A stretch of DNA of 64,000 bases, from assembly GCA_030390025.1 (NCBI GenBank), contig CM059432.1, positions 79,238,001-79,302,000 of the forward strand. Direction: 5' to 3'. Positions 4,426 through 61,731 of the stretch are shown piece after piece (the stretch's first letter is position 1; every line of letters begins with the position of its first letter). This DNA is from Squalus acanthias (Eukaryota). Under the pieces are notes generated by a model. It made no database searches and had not been told where the DNA came from. It saw only the letters and a list, made by a program, of their open reading frames with translations. The position numbers and the translations under genes were made by a program.

Positions 4426-5544
4426 GCCTAAAGGTGGAGGTTGGAAACCAGTATTGTTTTGGGGACATAAAACTTGAAAGCCTAGTGACCATTGTGGAAA
4501 ATGTCAGAAAGCAAGTTTCAATAGTCGAAGTACGACTACCCTCCAATGTTCTCTGAGTCAGAATTGTATGACCAGTAGAAGAATGAAGTTGATATGTGGA
4601 CACGGGTTACTGCTCTACCAAAGAGAAAATAAGGCATGGCCTTGACATTGTTGCTTCCTGAATGAAGTAAAATCAGTCGTTAAGGTATTTTCTGAAATGG
4701 AAGCTGATCAGTTGGATAATGATGAATGTTTTGACTTTCTAATGGATTTCCAGAATGAAATCTACAAAAGATGACCTGTTAAATGTCTATGAGGCCTGGT
4801 CAGAATTTAATAGATTTCGGAAAACGGATGGTTATTCAATGGAAGAGTATATCATGGACTTTAACAAATTGTATAAAAGGTTGGCAAAGTTTAATTTGGG
4901 AATCCCTGGATCGGTACTAGCATTGAAATTACTAGATTGTGCGAAGGTGTCTCGTATGGAGAAGCAACTTGTCCTAACTGGCGTCCAGTTCTCAGAAAAG
5001 GAGACTGTTGGAGCAGATGTCTGCTGCCTTAAAAAAAATTCCTGGGGAGTCAGTCATTCCCTTCAGCCTTCATGGAACAAATGAGGCATTACGCCGTGAC
5101 ACAAAGAATAAAAGATTCAATGGTTACCAGGTTTCAAAATATTCCCAATACCGGACGCAGGCGTCAATATAACAGAAGGATTAAAGACAGACAGAATGGT
5201 GAGGAAAGCACGTATAGAAAATCCGGCTATATCAACAGAAGACGAAATTGGGACAATAATAATGGGCAAATTAATTCCAGGAATGCCCAAGGAAAACTCA
5301 ATAGATGCTTTAGATGTGACTCCAAGTATCATTATGCGGTGAATTGCCCAGAACGAAGATGCAAAGTCTTTGAAATGACACATAAAAAAGTATCTCTGAG
5401 GATGAAGATCATGATTAATATGAACTGATTATTCTGGTCACAAGGAGTTTTAATCCTGTGATGAATGTATTAGTCATGGACTCCTTTAATTGTACGGTAT
5501 TAGTGCATGTACTTCAACTGTATGCGGGGTAGATTGGTTAAAAT

Positions 5545-5782
5545 CTGAAATAAAAACAGAAACTGCTGAAAATACTCAGCATGTCAGGCAGCATCTGTGG
5601 AGAGAGAAACAGAGTTAACGTTTCAGGTCGATGACCCTTTGTCGTTCTGACGAAGGGTCATCGACCTGAAATGTTAACTCTGTTTCTCTCTCCACAGATG
5701 CTGCCTGACATGCTGAGTATTTTCAGCATTTTCTGGTTTTTTTATTTCAGATGTCCAGCATCCGCAGTATTTTGCTTTTGTT
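5545..5782 (+). mobile_element. Fold-back Penelope-like non-autonomous element (family A) with hammerhead motif
   Basis: ~100-bp inverted arms plus a ~30-nt tail, flanked by direct repeat TTGGTTAAAAT (5534-5544, 5783-5793), inserted in the Copia protease region. Confidence 0.8.
5644..5678 (+). ncRNA. Minimal type I hammerhead motif (family A, stem III variant)
   Basis: gtt-CTGACGA-a-GGGTC-atc-GACCT-GAAA-tgtt-aac; the ACGT palindrome of stem III is changed to ATGT in this arm. Confidence 0.6.
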
Positions 5783-6192
5783 TTGGTTAAAATATTATCT
5801 TGATTCACGAATTACTGATGGTTGACGCAAGGTTAAGGAACATAAATGTACGACATGCTTTAGGTTTGGAGATGACAACAATTTGAGGTTACTCGAGTGG
5901 TAATTCCATGTAAAATAGCTGGAGTAAGCCATTTTATAAGTACGGATGTAATCTCTAATGAGATACCTATGCTTTTGAGTAAACCATCCATGAAAAAGGC
6001 ACAAATTAAACTGGTCATGGAACACGATAAGGCAATTATTTTGGGGAAATTGGTTGATCTGCAGTTTAACCAGTCAGGACATTATCTTATTCCCTTAACA
6101 AAACCTGATGTTTCTCATCAACATGTTAGGCAAGTATTAATGGCATCAGGATAAGGATTAGAGAATGAAAAAAAAATTGTCTTAAAGTTACA

Positions 6193-7582: not shown

Positions 7583-8410
7583 CTAATAGATAATTTGCCC
7601 ACCCTACTTGTCAACATTTAAAACTCCTGCTAAAAGATGCAGGTGAAGTTGATGAGGCGTATGCAAGGATAATAGAAGAGATTAGCGAGAACTGTGAAAT
7701 CTGTACAAAGTATAGAAGGACGGCCCCACATCCTATTGTAAGTCTTCCATTGGCACGTGACTTTAACGAGGTAGTTGCCATGGATCTAAAGGTATGGGAC
7801 AAAGACAGAAATGTTTTCTTTACATTTTATTGACCTGGCTACGAGATTTAGTATTTTTAAACTAATATATAGTAAGAAGAAGAAGGTTATTGCAGATTAA
7901 AATTATGGAAAAATGGATAGGGGCTGGACTTGGGACACTAGCAAAGTTTTTGACCGATAATGGAGTTGAATTCGCTAATAAGGAGTTCAGAGATATGTGT
8001 GAGAATATGAATATTGTCATGAATACAACAGCTGAGAGCCCTTTTAGGAATGGTCTTTGTGAAATGGATCATGCTGTGATTGATGACATGGTGCGTAAAA
8101 TTTTGGCTGATCGACCAAAGTTTAAATTGTCAACTGCCCTAGCATAGGCAGTTCACACACACAATTCTCTTCAGATGGTTGGAGGATATAATCCTTACCA
8201 ACTAGTCTATGGACACAATCCCAAATTACCTTCTGTTCTTTGTGATGATCTTCCTGCTCCCGAATGTACTTCAATTAGTGCTAAAAAAAATTCTGAGCAT
8301 TTAATGCAGAGTGACAGGCTTTTACCAAGGCTGAGGTATCCAAGAATATTCGTAGAGCACTGAGGCATCGTATTGGACTGTCTGAGACAGAGTTCAATTC
8401 AGGAGATTTG

Positions 8411-16275: not shown

Positions 16276-18512
16276 TTTTCAGTAAATGCCTGCATCTTGA
16301 GCAACTTCAGGTCAGAGTTTTTGAGCTGGAGTCTGAGGTGCAGGCATTGCGGGACATCAGGGTTGGGGAGAGTTACCTGCACACTTTGATCCAGGAAGCA
16401 GTCACACCCCTTAGGTTAGGTAGTGATACAGGTCTGGTTAGTGGTCAGGGACAGGAGGGTGTGACTGCAACTCAGGCAGCTAAGAGGACCCCAGGTACAG
16501 TGCTGGAGGAGCCTCAGCCTTTGCCCTTGTCCAACAGGTATGAGGTTCTTGCTGCCTGTGTGGATGAGGGAAAAGCCTGCAGGATGGATGAGCAAGATCA
16601 CCATGGCGCAGGAGGCCATTCAAGTGGGGGGAGTGAAAGGGAATGTAGTTGTGGTAGGGGACAGTATAGACGGGGATAGATACTGTTCTCTGCAGCCGTG
16701 ACCAAGAGTTCTGAAGGTTGTGTTGCCTGCCCGGTGCCAGAGTTAAAGACATCTCCTCGCGGCTGGAGGAGAACTTGGAGTGGGAGGGGGAGGATCCAGT
16801 TGTCGTGGTCCACATAGGAACCAACGACATAGGTAGAACTAGGAATAAGGTTCTGCTGAGGGAGTTTGAGGAGCTAGGATCCAAATTAAAAAGCAGAACC
16901 TCAAAGGTAATAATCTCTGAATTGTTACCTGAGCCACGCGCAAATTGGCATTGGGACAAACAGATTAGAGGTTTAAATGCGTGGCTCAAAGAGTGGTATG
17001 GGAGGAAGGGGTTTCAGATTATGGGGCACTGGCACCAGTACAGGGGAAAGAGGGAGCTGTTCCGTTGGGACGGGCTCCACTTAAACCGGGCTGGGACCAG
17101 TGTCCTGGCGAACCGAATAACTGGGGCAGCAAGACATGGCTTTAAACTAATGAAGGGACTGTGGGAGGATTCAGGAAAGAGTAAATTTAAAAGCAGCGAG
17201 AGAAATGTCAAGGCTCTGGAGCAGAGTAGAGTTTTGGGTAAAAATAAGCAGAGTGGGTCAGAAAGGGACAGAGAGAGTAACAAAGGTAATAAGGCATCAG
17301 TGACTAAGGTGACATCAGGGAAAAATAGAAATAAGTCAACGCTAAAGGCACTATATCTGAATGCGCAAAGCATTCACAACAAAATAGATGAATTAATAGT
17401 GCAGATAGAAATTAATAGGTTTGATCTAATAGCCATTACGGAGACGTGGTTGCAATGTGGCCAAGGTTGGGAACTAAATATTCCAGGATACTTTAACTTT
17501 TAGAAGAGATAGGCAAAATAGAAAAGGAGGAGGGGTAGCCCTGATAATAAAGGATGGGATAAAGACAACAGAGAGAAAGGATCTTAGCTCTGAAAATCAA
17601 GTAGAATCAGTTTGGGTGGAGCTAAGAAACAGCAAGGGGCAGAAAACATTGGTGGGAGTTGTTTATAGGCCCCCAAACAATAGTTGTAATGCAGGGCAGA
17701 GTATAAATCAGGAAATTAAAGGCGCATGTAACATGGGTAATACAGTAATCATGGGGGACTTCAATCTACATATAGACTGGGCAAACCAAATTTGCAGTAA
17801 TAGTGTGGAGGATGAATTCATGGAATGTATGCAAGATAGTTTTCTAGATCAGTATGTTGAGGAACCAACTAGGGAACAGGCTATTTTAGATCTAGTATTG
17901 TGCAACGAGAAAGGGTTAATTAATAACCTTGTAGTAAAGGGGCCTTTAGGGAACAGTATCCATAATATGATAGAATGTTATATTGAGTTTAAAAGTGATT
18001 TAGTTAAATCCAAAACTAGGGTCTTAAATCTAAACAAAGCAAACTACGTAGGTATGAGGGGTGAGTTGGCTAAGGTAGATTGGGAAACTACATTAAAAGG
18101 TATGATGGTAGAGAAGCAATGGCTAGCATTTAAAGAATTAATACATCATTTACAACAAATATACATTCCTTTTAAGGCACAAAAACCCCACAGGAAAAAT
18201 AGTTCAAACGTGGCTAATGAGAAGTTAAAGATAGTATTAGATCAAAGGAAGAGGCTTATAATGTTGCCAAAAAGAGTAGTAACCCTGAGGATTGGGAGGA
18301 TTTTAGAATTCAGCAAAGGAGGACCAAAAAATTGATAAAGGGAAAATAGAATATGAGAGTAAACTAGTGAGAGACATAAAAACAGATTGTAAAAGCTTCT
18401 GTATGTAAAAAAGAAAAGATTATTGACAGTAAATGTGGGTCCCTTACAGGCTGAGACAGGAGAAATTATAATGGGGAATAAGAAAATGGCAGAGAAATTA
18501 AATAAATACTTT

Positions 18513-19378
18513 GGCTGCGATTTTTCGGTTCGAGGCGGCTTAGGTGCGGGACAGCTGCCTTCTGGGTTCCAGTCCCGCCCCCAACGACATCAGACGCACA
18601 AACGTGATTTTGCGTCAATTAGCCTTAGTAAGCCCGCCCTGCGGGCTTGCCGGCCAATTAAGAGGAAGCCAGTGTCAGATGACGTCGGTTGATGACGCGT
18701 CATCTGCCGCTTTTCTTAAAGGGGCCACGCACTTTTTTTTTGACAGCTGGTTTCTCAGCGTTTGACAGCATTGAGGTGCTGCAAACACTGAGAATCACTG
18801 TACAAAGGTGAGCTCTTGCACCCAGGCTCTCCAGTGACTCCCTCCTTAGGCTAGAACAGATGGCAGCTGCAGGTGAGGTTACAGAAGCGATCTGTCACTG
18901 GTGAGAGAGGTTCTCCCAATGTGGTGGGACTACACATACAAATCAAAACTTGTTACCTACAGAAAAGTGTAAATGCATTAAAAATGATTTTCCCAACATT
19001 ATCTTACCTCTGAAACTCACCAGTGCACCATTGGATCCGTCACACCACTTCTGCAGCTGTCATCAATGCAGAAATATTACACCAGACTCGCAACATGCCA
19101 CACTTACCTAGCGTGGTGTCTGGACGCCGGGAAGCCCGCAGTAGAACTGTCAAAATTGCAAAAAGCCTCTTCACTGCCTGTTAACAAGCAGTTAAGTGGC
19201 TATAATCCTCTTCCCACCGCTAGGTGTCGGGTCCATGCGCAAATCGGGGACCCGACACTTGGGAAGATTGATTGAAGGCGGGTTGACAGCGGGTTTCCGA
19301 CCCGCTGTCAATCTTTACGATTTTTGCCGGATGTCCCGCCTCCAAACCCGCCCCCTGAGCGCCGGCAAAATTCCGGCC
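18513..19378. mobile_element. Harbinger-type non-autonomous element nested in CR1 ORF2
   Basis: Imperfect TIRs GGCTGCGATTTT / AAAATTCCGGCC; colinear with 49535-50356; interrupts CR1 NKYF/SVFTEED. Confidence 0.8.
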
Positions 19379-30696: not shown

Positions 30697-31445
30697 GGCC
30701 CGAAAATTAAACCTAATACGCGAGAGTACGCACTGTGTACTCTCGCGTATCAGGTCCCGAATTGCCGGTTTCCTGCATGCACTGCGCATGCGCGGGAAAC
30801 CGGCACTTCGTGAATTGCAAAGGGGGCGGTTCCTAAGTGAACCGCGTGCGCACGCAGTGCACTTAGTTTTTTTTTCAGGTTTGAACGCGCAGGTAAGTGG
30901 TGAAGATTTTACACACAAAGAAAGCAGGCGTAGGACCCCCTTTTAACAAGGTAAGTAGTTAATTAAGTGTTGTTTTAAATTTTTTTCAACAGGTTTATCT
31001 TTTTTAGAGACATTAAAGAAAGGTAAGTTTATTTTTATAACTTTTAAAAAGATTTTAAATTTTTTCAAAAATTTAATTTTTTGTTTAAAGTGGTTAATTT
31101 ATTTAACTATACTTATTTTATTAATGTGATGGCTTTTTTTAAAAATTTAATTGAGGTTTAGCTGTTCTTTTGGGGGCTTGTAGTATTCATAGCTTTGACA
31201 GCCCTTGCCGTCAAAACTATGAATGAAAGATGGTGTGCTGCCATTGGCTCTAACTGAATCACGTGATCCCAGAGCTCGCACGAACTAATTGCGCCTCTGG
31301 GATACGCAAGCACTGCACGGTTGCAACAGGGAGAGGCTCTGAAACTAAAGTTCGTGTGGGCCCCAAACAAAAAGGTAGGCGCGGAGTGCGATATCGCGGG
31401 GAATCCTTACCCCCGCGGGAACCATCGATGTTTAATTTCTGGGCC
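30697..31445. mobile_element. Harbinger-type MITE, second family
   Basis: TIRs GGCCCGAAAATTAAAC / GTTTAATTTCTGGGCC; GC-rich hairpin ends and AT-rich centre; colinear with 59796-60558. Confidence 0.8.
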
Positions 31446-35625: not shown

Positions 35626-36760
35626 AACGGTTGTTTTTCGAACTGGAGGAAGGTATACAATGGTGTTCCCCAGGGGTCAGTACTAGAACCACTGCTTTTC
35701 TTGATCTATATTAGTGACTTAGACTTGGGTGTACAAGGCACAATTTCAAAATTTGCAGATGACACAAAGCTTGGAAGTATAGTGAACAGTGAGGAGGATA
35801 GTGATAGACTTCAAGAAGACATAAAAAGGCTGGTGGAATGGGCGGACACGTGGCAGATGAAATTTAACGCAGAAAAGTGCGAAGTGATACATTTTGGTAG
35901 GAAGAACGAGGAGAGGCAATATCAACTAAAGGGTACAATTCTAAAGGGGGTGCTTTAACATAGAGACCTGGGGGTATATGTGCACAAATCGCTGAAGGTG
36001 ACAGGGCAGGTTGAGAAAGCGGTCAAAAAAGCACATGGGATCCTGGGCTTCATAAATAGAGGCATAGAGTACAAAAGCAAGGAAGTTATGATGAACCTTT
36101 ATAAAACACTGGTTCGGCCTCAACTGGAATATTGTGTCCAATTCTGGGCACCGCACTTTAGGAAGGATGTGAAGGCCTTATGGTGCAGAAAAGATTTACG
36201 AGAATGTTTCCAGGAATGAGGGACTTCAGTTACATGGATAGACTCGAGAAGCTGGGGTTGTTCTCCTTAGAGCAGAGAAGGTTGAGAGGAGATTTGATAG
36301 AGGTGTTCAAAATCATGAGGGTTCTAGACAGAGTAGGTAGAGAGAAACTGTTCTCATTGGCAGAAGGGTCGAGAACCAGAGGACAGATTTAAGGTGATTG
36401 GCAGAAGGACCAAAGGCGACATGAGGAAAAACTTTTTTACGGAGCGAGTGGTTATGATCTGGAATTCACTGCCTGAAAGGGTGGTGGAGGCAGATTCAAT
36501 TGTGGCTTTCAAAAGGGAATTGGATAGTACCTGAAGGAAAAGAATTTGCTGGGCTATGGGGAAACAAAATTGAGAGGTCGCACAACACCAGGTTATAGTC
36601 CAACAGTTTTATTTGAAATCACAAGCTTTCGGAGCTATCGATTGCCCCTTCCTCAGGTGTGGCAGGGGAGTGGGACTAACTGAAGTGCTCTTGCAGAGAG
36701 CTGGCACAGGCTTGACGGGCCGAATGGCCTCCTTCTGTGCTGCAACAGTTCTGATTCTAA
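35626..36760 (+). mobile_element. 5'-truncated CR1 LINE
   Basis: KFADDTKL and RPQLEYC motifs; same subfamily as 21264-23025 and 59495-61716. Confidence 0.9.
36565..36660 (-). mobile_element. Family B single-arm fragment with hammerhead motif (36620-36659), inserted in a CR1 3' UTR
   Basis: Minus strand reads cac-CTGAGGA-a-GGGGC-aatcgata-GCTCC-GAAA-GCTT-gtg. Flanks match the uninterrupted CR1 3' UTR near 61600-61630. Confidence 0.78.
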
Positions 36761-49534: not shown

Positions 49535-50356
49535 GGGCTGGATTTTACTAACTGAGACGAGTTGGGGGCGGGACTGCTGCCTTCCGGGTTCTAGTCCCGC
49601 CCCCAGCGACGTCTGACGAACAGACACTATTTTGCCATGATTGGCCTTGTTAAGCCCGCCCTGCGGGCTTGCCGGCCAATTAAGGGAAAGCTGGTGTCAG
49701 TTGATAACGCTTCATCTGCCGGTTTTCTTAAAGGCATATGCACCACATTTGTTTGACAGGTGATTTGACAGTGTTTGACAGCATTGAGGTGCTGTCAAAC
49801 ACTGTACACAGGTGAGCCCTTGAACCCAGCCTCTCCAATTACTCTCCTTAGCATAAAACAGATGGCAGCTGCAGCTGAGATTGCAGAAGCCATCTGTCAC
49901 TTCTCCCGATGAGATGAGGCTACACAAACACTTCACAGCTTGTCACCTGCAGAAACATCCAACCACATTAAAAATTACTTTCACAACATTTCATTACCTC
50001 TTATACTAACCATTGTCCCATTGCATCCTTCACACCACTTCTGCAGCTGTCATCCAAACACCAACATAACAACAGACCCACAGCACGCCTCACTTACCCC
50101 GGCGGGGTTCCCCGATGTCGGGAAGCACGCAGCAGCAGTCGAAAAATTGGGAAAAGCCTCTTAACTGCCTGTTAACTACCTGTTAACAGGCAGTTAAGTG
50201 GCTATAATCCTCTTCCCGCCGCTAGGAGTCGGGTCCCTGCTCAAATCAGGGACCCGACTCCTGGGAAGATTGGTTGGAGGTGGGTTCAGGACACGCTCCC
50301 ATTCTTTTTGACTTTCCCAGCAGTCCCGCCTCCCTAGGGCTGGTAAAATCCAGCCC
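49535..50356. mobile_element. Harbinger-type non-autonomous element
   Basis: Perfect 14-bp TIR GGGCTGGATTTTAC / GTAAAATCCAGCCC with 3-bp TSD ACA. Confidence 0.88.
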
Positions 50357-53040: not shown

Positions 53041-53396
53041 GTAAAAAAAAGGTCTGACTGGAAACTTATTTTAAGGCAAACTCATGTTTTGAATGTTATT
53101 TATATCCTTTTATACCAGTTACTACTTCACATCTCTGTAATTGTTGTTTGATTTGTTGCCTTGAAGTGTGAATCTGGAAATGTTGTAATTAATTATTTAC
53201 AATTGATAATTGCAATCTGTTTTGTAAACAAGTTACAAAGTTATTTTTCAAAGTGCTTTATTCCTTTTGAAAGTATTCCTACCCTTCCTCATTTTTAAAT
53301 TTTGATTTCCTTCCACGATACCTCTTTCAAATCAAGAAAGCAGGTAGATGACATTTGAGGAATTTTAGGACCACACTCTATGACCTAATACTTGAG

Positions 53397-53611
53397 TGAG
53401 AAGTCGCACAACACCAGGTTATAGTCCAACAGTTTTATTTAAAATTACGAGCTTTCGGAGCTGCTGCTCCTTCGTCAGGTAGAGGTGACCTGACGAAGGA
53501 GCAGCAGCTCCGAAAGCTCGTAATTTTAAATAAAACTGTTGGACTATAACCTGGTGTTGTGCGACTTCTCATTTTTGTCCACCCCAGTCCAACACCGGCA
53601 TCTCCGCATCA
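53397..53611 (+). mobile_element. Fold-back Penelope-like non-autonomous element (family B) with a hammerhead core in each arm
   Basis: Perfect 84-bp inverted repeat (53397-53480, 53488-53571), 7-nt spacer, 40-nt tail, TSD CTAATACTTGAG (53385-53396, 53612-53623). Core CTGACGA-a-GGAGC-agca-GCTCC-GAAA-GCTC. Confidence 0.85.
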
Positions 53612-53777
53612 CTAATACTTGAGCACAGTGCATTAGCACATCAGTGTGGTTCCCCACCAGACTTAGTAAATATGTTTTACGCTGATGTTAAAACTGATCG
53701 TATTTAATAAATACATAATTGTGCAAGAGATTTGAATATTATTTGTTAAAAATGTATAATATCATTGTGTATACTAG

Positions 53778-53900
53778 GCTTTCAGTACATTCGGGTGCAT
53801 ACTGCAGGTGCTACAGAATCGGCAACCGTGCGAAATGACTTCACGTGCACTTTGTGTAACTCTGCACTCAAGGAAGATGTGAAATTCAGAGTGCTGGGTG
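53778..53900 (+). CDS. mcmdc2: MCMDC2 coding exon 5
   Basis: tactag|...|gtatgt; 123 nt, (G)FQYIRVHTAGATESATVRNDFTCTLCNSALKEDVKFRVLG. Confidence 0.95.
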
Positions 53901-54257
53901 GTATGTGTATAATTCCTTACGTTCTTAGTTTAATTTCTTATATTCTTAGTTTAATTGTACATGAAATAATGATGCTTGGGACATATTACTGAGAGACAAT
54001 TCAAAAACAGCAGTAAAATAATTTTCATAAATGTGTAGCTAGAAGAGCTCAGGGCTGAAGAACTGAACCTGCGATAAATGTATTGCTTAATACATGTTGG
54101 AAATACAAATGAGAGTTTCTATCACGATATTCTAATAATGCTTTGAGTGCTTTGTTTGCATTATCAGTAATAGTGTTCAGTACTTTTGAGTATCACTCTA
54201 CAATTAAATTATTTGGGTATAACATAAGGGCATCAAATGGTGCAACTGTAAAATATA

Positions 54258-54660
54258 TTCCCCTATGACTTAGCTGGTTAACTAAATTATTAGTTGCACC
54301 ATATGAGCCAAGAAAGATCCACATTTGATCCCTGCTCTTTGCTGAGTTAGCTTATCTCAGCCTGGGCGTCAACAAGGGCACTACAATTAACTTCATTGAT
54401 CCCCAGATTACAGAGCGGAAAGTAAGCCAGGATTCCTAGTCCTCATTGCTAACCAGAGACTCTTTGTGGAGGTGTTTGTGTGGAGGGAGGGTGGGAGAGA
54501 CCGGATCAGTCTCAAATGTGATAAGTTGTTGGCAAAGAGTCATCACTGTGATCATATAACCTCTCTGTCATGGCCTCATACAAGAAGAACCCTGGCCTAC
54601 TTATCCCTCCTTAGTCTGGTCACTTGGATGAGTTCCTGGGGGATTCTAACACCCTTGAAA
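54258..54660 (+). mobile_element. Old SINE-like repeat with tRNA-like head; related minus-strand copy at ~63630-63860
   Basis: Degenerate A/B boxes (TGACTTAGCTGG, TTTGATCCC) and weak similarity to the reverse complement of 63630-63860. Confidence 0.45.
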
Positions 54661-55020
54661 CTATAGCACAGCAATACCTTCAAGAAGGAAGGAGGGACTT
54701 GGAAAAATTAGTGGAGAAGGAGGGAAAAACATTTTGTAAAACACAACCTGGGCATTTATTTTTAATAGTACAGGGTATGTCAGTTTTTGTTGTTCAGGTT
54801 ATTTTCCCTTGTTACCACCATCCACTTTATTATTCTGTTTGTATTATTTCTGGCAAAAACAAGTATCACCAGTACATGTGGCCATGCCTAGCTCTCAGCT
54901 TGAATTTGTGCATTGTGCGGTCTTTGTAATGGAGATAATATGGAGTCAGAAGCTCAACTCAGGGTCCAACAGGGCGCTGAGATTGCAAACAGTTTGGTTC
55001 AGCTTGAGACAGAGGCCAAG

Positions 55021-55183
55021 AGAGGGAGTTAACGTTTCAGGTCGATGACCCTTCGTCAGAACTTCATCTGAAACGTTAACTCTGTTTCTCTCTCCACAGA
55101 TGCTGCCTGACCTGCTGAGTATTTCCAGCTTTTTCTGTTTTTATTTCAGATTTCCAGCATCTGCAGTATTTTGCTTTTGTATT
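55021..55183 (+). mobile_element. Family A Penelope-like element, short inverted arm plus tail
   Basis: Near-identical to the right arm and tail of 5545-5782, preceded by a short inverted segment; no TSD seen. Confidence 0.78.
55027..55063 (-). ncRNA. Minimal type I hammerhead motif (family A, core intact)
   Basis: Minus strand reads agtt-CTGACGA-a-GGGTC-atc-GACCT-GAAA-CGTT-aact: stem I, conserved core, stem II and palindromic stem III ACGT. Confidence 0.75.
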
Positions 55184-55804
55184 AGTGAATTTTCAGTAAC
55201 TTGGTTTAAGTTTTGTTGTGATGAGAATGTTTTAATTGTTTTTAAACTCTATACTCATGAACACATTGTCAATGAAACTGGTCTTACACATGCCAACTTC
55301 CTACGCGCAAGGGCTGGAAATTCAACAATCTGCAACGCTGCCTCAGTGTCATCTGTGGGATTTAGACGACAAAAATTAGTGAAAAGTATAGTTGTGTTTT
55401 AGAAGGGAGTGTGGAATTCCCCAAGTAAGTAGTAGCTAGGGGTTTTAGGGAAATGTGAAGTGACTTAAAAATATAGTACTTTTAAAAATTAAGCGACCTG
55501 TTTCAACAAACATTTTGGATTATTGCACTTGCATAATTACATTTTTAGAAAAACTATATAAAGTAAAAGATACTTCCTTTTAATTTTCTAGGGTTCTTTA
55601 GGAAAGGTATATAGATTAAATGTCCCATTCATATATATGATAGAATAAATGAAAAATATTAAAATGTGAATGCTCTTTAGAAATCGCACATTTTCCCCTC
55701 TACAACAACATCTTGCATTTGTATAGTGCCCTTAACATAGTAAAACGTCCCAAGGCTCAAGCAAGCCTCTCAGCTGGAAGTTTAAATATTTAATTGTTCA
55801 TGCT

Positions 55805-59795: not shown

Positions 59796-60558
59796 GGGGC
59801 AGAAATTAGGCTCGCCACGGGTGAGTACGCACTATGTACTCACCCCTGGACGGAACGAAAGTGCCGGTTTCTTGCATGCACTGCGCATGCGCAGGAAACC
59901 GGCACTTCCGTTTCCCTGAAGGAAGGGGTTCAGAGGTCGAACGCGCACGCCGGAGGGCCAGCGCGTTCGCCTCGCACTTCGGGTTTTTTTACAGGTTCCT
60001 CCGTGAGGGTAAGCACGGAGAAGATGCACATTGAAAAAGGAGGCGCAAGGCCTTCTTTTAACAAGGTAAGTGTTGATTTTATTAAAATTTAAACTTTTTT
60101 CACAGATTTATCTTTTTTAATTACTTTAAAGAAAGGTAAGTTTAGTTTTAGCCCCGTTAAAAAGTGTAATTAATTTTTTCAAAAATTTAAATTTTTGTTT
60201 AAAATAGTTAATTAATGTAATTTATAGTTATTTTAAAAATGTGATGTTTTTTTTTAATTTATTTGTAGTTTTAGGGATGTTTTGGGACCGATCTGTATTC
60301 ATAGATTTGACAGGTCTTCCTGTCAAATCTATGAATGAAAGATGGTCTGCTGCCATTGGCTCTCCATGGCCCACGTGATCCCACGGGACGCATCGCACTA
60401 ACTACGCCCCTGGGATACGCAAACACTGCGCGCCGGCAGTTGGAGGAGGCCCAGGACCCTAATCCCCCGTGGGCCCAGGGGTCAACGGCAGGCGCGGTAG
60501 GTAGGTGCGCGCGCGATCCTTGCACGTGTTGGAAGCCAGGGAGCCGAATTTCTGGCCC
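59796..60558. mobile_element. Harbinger-type MITE, second family, nested in a CR1 RT
   Basis: TIRs GGGGCAGAAATT / AATTTCTGGCCC with 3-bp TSD ATT; removing it restores CR1 YIND. Confidence 0.85.
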
Positions 60559-60906
60559 ATTAATGACTCAGACTTGGGTGTACAGAGCACAATTTCAAAA
60601 TTTTCAGATGACACTAAACTTGGAAGTATAGTGAACAGTGAGGAGGATAGTGATAGACTTCAAGAAGATATAGACAGGCTGGTGGAATGGGTGGACACGT
60701 GGCAGATGAAATTTAGCACAGAAAAGTGCGAAGTACATTTTGGTAGGAAGAACGAGGAGAGGCAATATAAACTAAAGGGTACAATTCGAAAGTGGGTGCA
60801 TGACCAGAGAGACCTGGGGGTATATGTGCACAAATCGTTGAAGGTGGCAGGGCAGGTTGAGAAAGCGGTTAAAAAAGCATACAGGATCCTTGGCTTCATA
60901 AATAGA

Positions 60907-61092
60907 CATGATGTGGAGATGCCGGTGTTGGACTGGGGTGGACAAATGTGAGAAGTCGCACAACACCAGGTTATAGTTCAACAGTTTTATTTGAAATCAC
61001 AAGCTTTCGGAGCGCTGAAGTGAAGCACTTCACCTGACGAAGGAGCAGCGCTCCGAAAGCTTGTGATTTCAAATAAAACTGTTGTGCGACTT
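60907..61092 (-). mobile_element. Family B Penelope-like fold-back element inserted in a CR1 RT
   Basis: Same sequence family as 53397-53611 in opposite orientation; TSD TTCATAAATAGA (60895-60906, 61093-61104) duplicates CR1 codons FINR. Confidence 0.85.
61030..61066 (+). ncRNA. Minimal type I hammerhead motif (family B, core intact)
   Basis: tcac-CTGACGA-a-GGAGC-agc-GCTCC-GAAA-GCTT-gtga; stem I tcac/gtga, palindromic stem III AGCT, predicted cleavage after 61062. Confidence 0.8.
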
Positions 61093-61731
61093 TTCATAAA
61101 TAGAGGCATAGAGTACAAAAGCAAGGAAGTTATGATGAACCTTTATAAAACACTGGTTCGGCCTCAACTGGAGTATTGTGTCCAACTCTGGGCACCGCAC
61201 TTTAGGAAGGATGTGAAGGTCTTAGAGAGGGTGCAGAAAAGAATTACAAGAATGGTTCCACGGATGAGGGACTTCAGTTACGTGGATAGACTGGAGAAGC
61301 TGGGGTTGTTCTCCTTAGAGCAGAGAAGGTGAGAGGAGATTTGATAGAGGTGTTCAAAATCATGAGGGGTCTAGACAGAGTAGATAGAGAGAAACTGTTC
61401 CCATTGGCAGAAAGGTCGAGTACCAGAGGACACAGATTTAAGGTGATTGGCAGAAGAACCAAAGGCGACATGGTAAAACTTTTTTACGCAGCGAATGGTT
61501 AGGATCTGGAATTCACTGCCTGAAAGGGCGGTGGAGGCAGATTCAATCGTGGCTTTCAAAAGGGAATTGGATAAGTACCTGAAGGAAAATAATTTGCAGA
61601 GCTACGGGGAAAGGGTGGGTGAGTGGGACTAGCTGAAGTGCTCTTGCAGAGAGCCGACACAGGCTCGATGAGCCAAATGGTCTCCTTCTGTGCTGTAACC
61701 ATTCTATGATTCTATGAGTTGTAAACACAAA

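Follow-up and report, generated by a model that had tools for sequence, protein, structure and literature searches.

What kind of element left the five insertions, 95–240 bp long, that carry minimal type I hammerhead motifs in the 64-kb stretch of Squalus acanthias DNA analysed here (the window), and what part, if any, did the ribozyme have in making them? A preliminary description of the sequence had read them either as ribozyme-processed non-autonomous retroelements or as extreme truncations, mobilised by a Penelope-like partner.

Hammerhead cores and insertion sites

The whole window was scanned on both strands for CTGANGA followed by a stem II of at least 4 bp and GAAA. Six matches were found, starting at 5647, 53490 and 61034 on the plus strand and at 55059, 53478 and 36656 on the minus strand, and every one lies within the five loci, which are thus present where they had been placed (Table 1). 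Across 200 block shuffles the same pattern gave a mean of 0.39 matches and a maximum of 3, and six or more were never reached (0/200). When a palindromic stem III, an H17 other than G and a stem I were also demanded, five of the six cores passed (shuffle mean 0); the core that fails, at 5647, belongs to the arm with ATGT as its stem III. All six motifs have the layout that had been claimed, with CTGANGA, a bulged A after this core, a 5-bp stem II, GAAA and a loopless stem III, and H17 is U or C throughout. A profile search of the window gave no further copies beyond two matches at E 0.47 and 0.68.

All six motifs also fit the minimal hammerhead consensus of Penelope-like elements (PLEs) as drawn in Fig. 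S3 of PMC4209133, which has a bulged nucleotide after A9, a palindromic 15.2–16.2 and a short helix I. The likeness to the PLE hammerheads described there extends to CUGANGA-H, a helix II that starts with G, GAAA and the lack of a loop 3; the differences are that the family A copies here close stem II with G-U and that ours are putative ribozymes, recognised from their sequence. Among the 56 motifs of that figure there is no cartilaginous fish. The hammerhead model search proposed in the preliminary description gave a different outcome from the pattern scan: none of the 13 Rfam matches up to E 5 was to a hammerhead, and the fold-backs gave only sub-threshold microRNA-hairpin matches. Such hammerhead models would be expected to miss a motif that lacks the helix III they look for.

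Families A and B had been called different in sequence, and indeed profile and sequence comparison found a 10-nt core match as the only sequence common to both. Stems I, II and III differ between the families yet remain paired, and within family B stem I covaries (CAC/GTG versus TAC/GTA). That two families which share only this core keep all three stems, together with the covariation in family B, indicates selection on the parent elements. The comparison of core and flank conservation that had been suggested as a check did not come out in favour of the core: within families, changes amount to 1/83 at core positions versus 30/697 at other positions, and the core is not significantly better conserved than the rest. 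The copies within each family look neutral, and the within-family comparison is uninformative. One of the A1 arms has lost G8, and in its partner the palindrome of stem III is broken.

Target-site duplications (TSDs) of 11–12 bp, as reported for three copies, were confirmed at A1, B2 and B3; of 2000 site pairs drawn at random, 3 had at least 11 bp. At A2 and B1 a TSD was searched for and none was found. Over the five loci, then, the TSD is variable in length or absent, and the target is AT-rich. B3 and B1 lie in CR1-like LINE repeats, paralogues of which supply empty sites in the window: near 36049 the TSD 12-mer of B3 is present once, while the empty site of B1 indicates an insertion without duplication. 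For B2, orthologous contigs from two other organisms (B and D) match exactly from 53612 onwards, and the 112 and 109 letters before that position are unlike the element. Since the match begins only at 53612, we infer that B2 is absent from both organisms, which would hold the empty site. A2 was not counted as bridged in runs X5 and X6, in which 25 and 18 letters fall on the element side.

Table 1. Parts of the five insertions (A1 and A2, family A; B1 to B3, family B), with positions in the window.
Feature	Position	Strand	Remarks
A1 TSD, left	5534..5544		11 bp
A1 tail-less arm	5545..5643	-	stops 2 nt inside core; G8 changed at CpG
A1 tailed arm	5644..5782	+	hammerhead 5644-5678, stem III ATGT; 32-nt tail 5751-5782
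A1 TSD, right	5783..5793		11 bp
B1 single arm	36565..36660	-	core 36656, H17 36623; ends 6 nt into tail
B2 TSD, left	53385..53396		12 bp
B2 tail-less (inverted) arm	53397..53487	-	complete minimal hammerhead, core 53478-53472, H17 53449; reaches 9 nt upstream of C3; unpaired loop of hairpin 53481-53487
B2 tailed arm, paired part	53488..53571	+	core 53490-53496, GAAA 53512-53515, H17 53519; 84 nt, 100% complementary to other arm
B2 unpaired tail	53572..53611	+	40 nt
B2 TSD, right	53612..53623		12 bp
A2 tail-less arm	55026..55063	-	complete hammerhead, core 55059, H17 55031
A2 tailed arm	55064..55180	+	begins inside stem II
B3 TSD, left	60895..60906		12 bp
B3 tailed arm	60907..61017	-	begins in stem II, without core; 3' end 46 nt longer than other arm
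B3 junction	61017..61031		6-bp mini-hairpin, 3-nt loop
B3 tail-less arm	61026..61092	+	complete hammerhead, core 61034, H17 61062; internal deletion between short repeats
B3 TSD, right	61093..61104		12 bp

Arm anatomy and the state of the template

The common layout that had been proposed stands for four of the five loci, which fold back, and not for B1, which is a single arm without a TSD. Nor is it uniform among the four: in A2 and B3 the complete core sits in the tail-less arm and the tailed arm starts in stem II. The A2 locus itself is real, with its bounds moved by loose contig ends from 55021–55183 to about 55026–55180. The tail-less arm ends 32 (A1), 40 (B2) and 46 (B3) nt before the tailed arm. 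A direct partial tandem (pLTR) was sought within the window and found at 0 of 5 loci.

Measured from C3, inner arm ends are found at -3 and +2 in A1, at -4 and +11 or +19 in A2, at -4 in B1, at -2 and -9 in B2, and at -8 and +12 in B3; all nine arms in the window thus have their inner ends within -9 to +19 nt of C3. The predicted cleavage position is near +28. Every one of the nine arms starts at least 9 nt upstream of the cleavage site and none starts at it, which shows that the template RNA was uncut at this hammerhead. These nine starts, and fold-back centres that vary from copy to copy, speak against the notion of a ribozyme-processed non-autonomous element.

Any one strand holds only one sense-strand motif, so no dimer can form in cis. 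Whole fold-backs are predicted to form one long hairpin (-162.9 kcal/mol for B2 and -180.5 kcal/mol for A1), and the pair probability of stem II is 0 in whole B2, A1 and B3 versus 0.99 in the B2 arm alone: by this prediction the ribozyme fold is lost in a fold-back. In two-strand folding, the stem III dimer was not the lowest-energy structure for any of three motifs.

Two of the loci bear on how the arms were made. At A2 and B3 the core is present only in the tail-less arm. With the tail confined to one arm and the core to its partner, neither can have arisen by snap-back copying of the other, and this points to two separately primed cDNAs. B2 probably behaves in the same way, as its loop resembles the upstream letters of B3; A1 would fit snap-back self-priming just as well and does not discriminate. 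The mini-hairpin at the B3 junction, a feature also of the self-priming model in PMC3846280, suggests that brief self-priming may play a part. For inverted PLE ends, that paper proposes self-priming with an antisense molecule as template. The anatomy of A2 and B3 speaks against a snap-back purely from sense-derived cDNA, and some antisense-template models may fit these two loci. The junctions of these stumps record how inverted PLE ends are built, by antisense-template self-priming or by priming from both strands, and copies with arm-specific sequence in each arm favour the latter.

Two details of the arms concern possible reading frames. The family A arm plus tail is open in one frame at 5644–5781 (46 codons) and 55064–55180 (39 codons), which could be the start of a parent ORF or could be chance. 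The B3 tail is two letters longer than that of B2 and ends, on the minus strand at 60907–60909, in ATG; this could be the start of a parent ORF.

The two families in other sequencing runs

Positions 53481–55400 of the window were compared with contigs from four sequencing runs. Summed depth was 10–13 on single-copy flank and 0.3–8 million on the two elements, a quantity that we do not take as copy number; in the three genomic-type runs the element bins stand about five orders of magnitude above the single-copy flank. Both families are very abundant, and the depth agrees with the finding of five loci in 64 kb. Run X19, tentatively taken for RNA, covers 9 of 30 bins, namely the repeats, and was excluded as evidence. 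The joints and loose ends described below are the listed minority of 521 joints and 1688 loose ends, with few family B ends among them.

The 3' ends of family A pile up at 55178–55180 (463, 250 and 410 contigs in X5), behind which the letters are unrelated and AT-rich, and again at 55145 (452 contigs in X6), so that the two end points are about 34 nt apart. Loose ends at 55063 and 55068 are of another kind: upstream of them contigs agree at 0.42–0.65, versus 0.36–0.45 at the 3' ends, and a part of the contigs has upstream sequence in common. It follows from this common sequence that longer parent copies exist. Before family A stem I the upstream sequence ends in a pyrimidine run plus CAG; by analogy this may be reminiscent of the Drosophila virilis Penelope, for which PMC4209133 describes an intron end at helix I.

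Same-strand joints among those listed run from 55050–55062 to 55097–55136 and correspond to many fold-back centres. Some tailed arms among them start 20–60 nt downstream of the cleavage site, and hence the clustering of 5' ends is not absolute. Opposite-strand joints near 55026–55030 were set aside as artefacts of the inverted arms of A2 itself. In organism D, several joints run from 53561–53569 back to 53523–53530 with a depth of up to 1019; they may reflect short tandem repeats of part of the family B end. The repeats at 54313–54376 and 54889–55025, which adjoin the elements, have a depth 30–350 times single-copy in the other runs, and the latter has A2 inserted at its border.

Probable Penelope-like origin and its rivals

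In our judgement two Penelope-like families have, with good probability, left these five loci as 5'-truncated ends made up of pLTR plus tail; they were probably pasted in by an RT/GIY-YIG protein whose gene lies elsewhere in the genome. Of the preliminary description, it is the Penelope-like origin and the extreme-truncation alternative that find support, as the anatomy matches published PLE ends. The hallmarks of EN+ PLEs seen here are a minimal type I hammerhead in the terminal piece, an adjacent inverted 5'-truncated copy at four of five loci, a one-sided tail (32, 40 or 46 nt), and a variable or absent TSD in an AT-rich target. A canonical PLE end is described as a pLTR with an adjacent inverted pLTR and an optional tail (PMC8557442, PMC3846280, PMC8969392). 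As portrayed in PMC3846280 and PMC8557442, the EN+ insertion unit resembles our loci in its head-to-head inverted end copy, its 30–40 bp tail at one end, its TSD of ~8–12 bp or none, its heavy 5' truncation and the palindromes at the inverted junction; unlike that unit, the loci here are without ORF sequence (95–240 bp) and are extremely numerous. The individual figures given are a PLE tail of 30–40 bp (PMC8557442) and a 31-bp tail with TSDs of 9–10 bp (PMC3846280). Most hammerhead motifs in PMC4209133 are single-copy and thought to be truncated PLEs, and some form opposite-strand pairs 100–700 bp apart. By description, the Anolis Poseidon element PAc (PMC11167929) is also alike: its tail is bounded by two 3' end points, its targets are AT-rich and its copies are uncut at the hammerhead.

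On this basis the insertions may be pictured as follows. The RT/GIY-YIG protein would nick both target strands ~11–12 nt apart in AT-rich DNA, and each nick would prime one cDNA on element RNA. A cDNA begun at the distal start would give the tailed arm, and one begun 32–46 nt further in the tail-less arm; both would stop early, near the ribozyme front, and then be joined head to head. The hairpin would be made anew at each insertion, and the ribozyme would be cargo inherited from the parent, which a long hairpin is predicted to sequester in the fold-back copy. The account in PMC11167929 has two RT start sites that bound the tail, AT-rich targets, cutting and extension on both target strands, and a template that is mainly unprocessed RNA; hammerhead cleavage is there described as not needed and protein-assisted.

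The partner protein was looked for in the window. None of the 150 longest of 226 stop-to-stop frames (at least 72 aa; Pfam) is an RT/GIY-YIG ORF, and a six-frame motif scan of the window found no GIY-YIG-like motif and one weak RT-like regex match. Pfam matches in those 150 frames were to RVT_1, AP-endonuclease, esterase and zf-RVT, with one weak integrase and one weak WD40_alt; with its RT, AP-endonuclease and esterase frames this is a LINE-rich, vertebrate-type setting. The 46-codon frame of A1 gave no match to longer proteins and four matches to representative proteins, none with RT or GIY-YIG. Two of these four were rejected as repetitive chance matches, and the other two, short unnamed products, appear to be family A copies read through into flanking sequence. 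Exact-pattern scans found 0 loci of family B in viral and metagenome collections and 0 loci of family A in metagenome, viral and prokaryote genome collections.

The stumps could instead be dedicated non-autonomous PLE derivatives, in which short transcribed masters of pLTR plus tail serve as templates and borrow the PLE protein in SINE-like fashion. Such derivatives have been published (PMC8557442; bioRxiv 10.64898/2026.07.22.740005), and both the very high abundance (about five orders over flank in three runs, five loci in 64 kb) and the stopping of 9/9 window arms within -9 to +19 nt of C3 would suit them. We nevertheless regard this as unlikely: part of the contigs run into common upstream sequence, fold-back centres vary, other copies begin 20–60 nt past the cleavage site, and no head resembling a promoter came to light.

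Still less probable is a retrozyme-like element, from which the hammerhead would excise a unit to be circularised and then reverse-transcribed. Animal non-LTR retrozymes, as described in PMC7229834 and bioRxiv 10.64898/2026.07.22.740005, are likewise non-coding and derived from PLE ends, their type I hammerhead with palindromic stem III is shared by our loci, and the latter source reports them from one chondrichthyan genome and notes that monomers exist. But those elements are head-to-tail tandems with canonical tandem hammerheads (PMC7229834), whereas here the motifs are minimal and the copies solo or head-to-head, spanning the cleavage site. None of the five loci is a head-to-tail tandem, the arm ends are not at the cleavage site, and in folding models the fold-back removes stem II.

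Mutator-like elements have long inverted repeats and TSDs of 9–11 bp, and near-perfect inverted arms of 84–95 nt with TSDs of 11–12 bp might recall a MITE or foldback DNA transposon of this sort, but we give that reading hardly any credence, and the variability of the ends already refutes it for the most part: a 32–46-nt tail lies outside the inverted repeats, so that these do not form the termini, termini and centres differ among copies, B1 is one-armed, TSD length varies or the TSD is absent, and two families with nothing else in common have both kept the hammerhead core.

A bolder proposal is tentative and in our view rather doubtful: instead of random truncations of the 3' end, the stumps might be run-off copies of the transcript 5' end, made because the PLE protein falls off just before the ribozyme. 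Reverse transcription would then start internally, in an upstream tail, from both nicked target strands, and fall-off would occur at the RNA 5' end, or at a splice boundary, just before the ribozyme. If so, one RNA feature would explain the tiny uniform size, the fold-backs and a load of perfect hairpins on the order of 100,000 per genome; in the stumps a strong-stop-like PLE intermediate would be mapped in fossil form.

As a class, such loci are already known: they are likely ordinary PLE end-pieces, copied from RNA uncut at the ribozyme, and their modest interest lies in their abundance and in 5' ends clustered at the ribozyme front. In practice, tools that rely on hairpins will take these highly abundant repeats for MITEs or for precursors of microRNAs. 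For the whale shark, a list of repeats includes Penelope elements (PMC8455134), and the accessible part of PMC6155905 has nothing further on sharks. The literature covered, with Repbase, Dfam and subscription papers outside its scope, has no description by name of these fold-back stumps or of shark PLE hammerheads; both families may already be catalogued.

Other repeats in the window deserve mention beside these insertions. A second palindrome-rich family, at 30700–30870 and 59817–59912, has several 20–22 nt inverted arms and is ~81% alike over 92 nt; the core scan found no hammerhead core in it, and it is possibly a DNA-transposon derivative. A short fold-back pair with a GTTAAC centre, at 50155–50215 and 19164–19213, is 92% alike over 49 nt. 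A CR1-like stretch at 16715–18335 is fairly intact; its esterase-type ORF1 precedes an AP-endonuclease frame. Finally, a frame with a zinc-knuckle-like motif (5033–5425) and another with a weak integrase match (7866–8144) suggest that A1 was inserted into a decayed LTR-type element.
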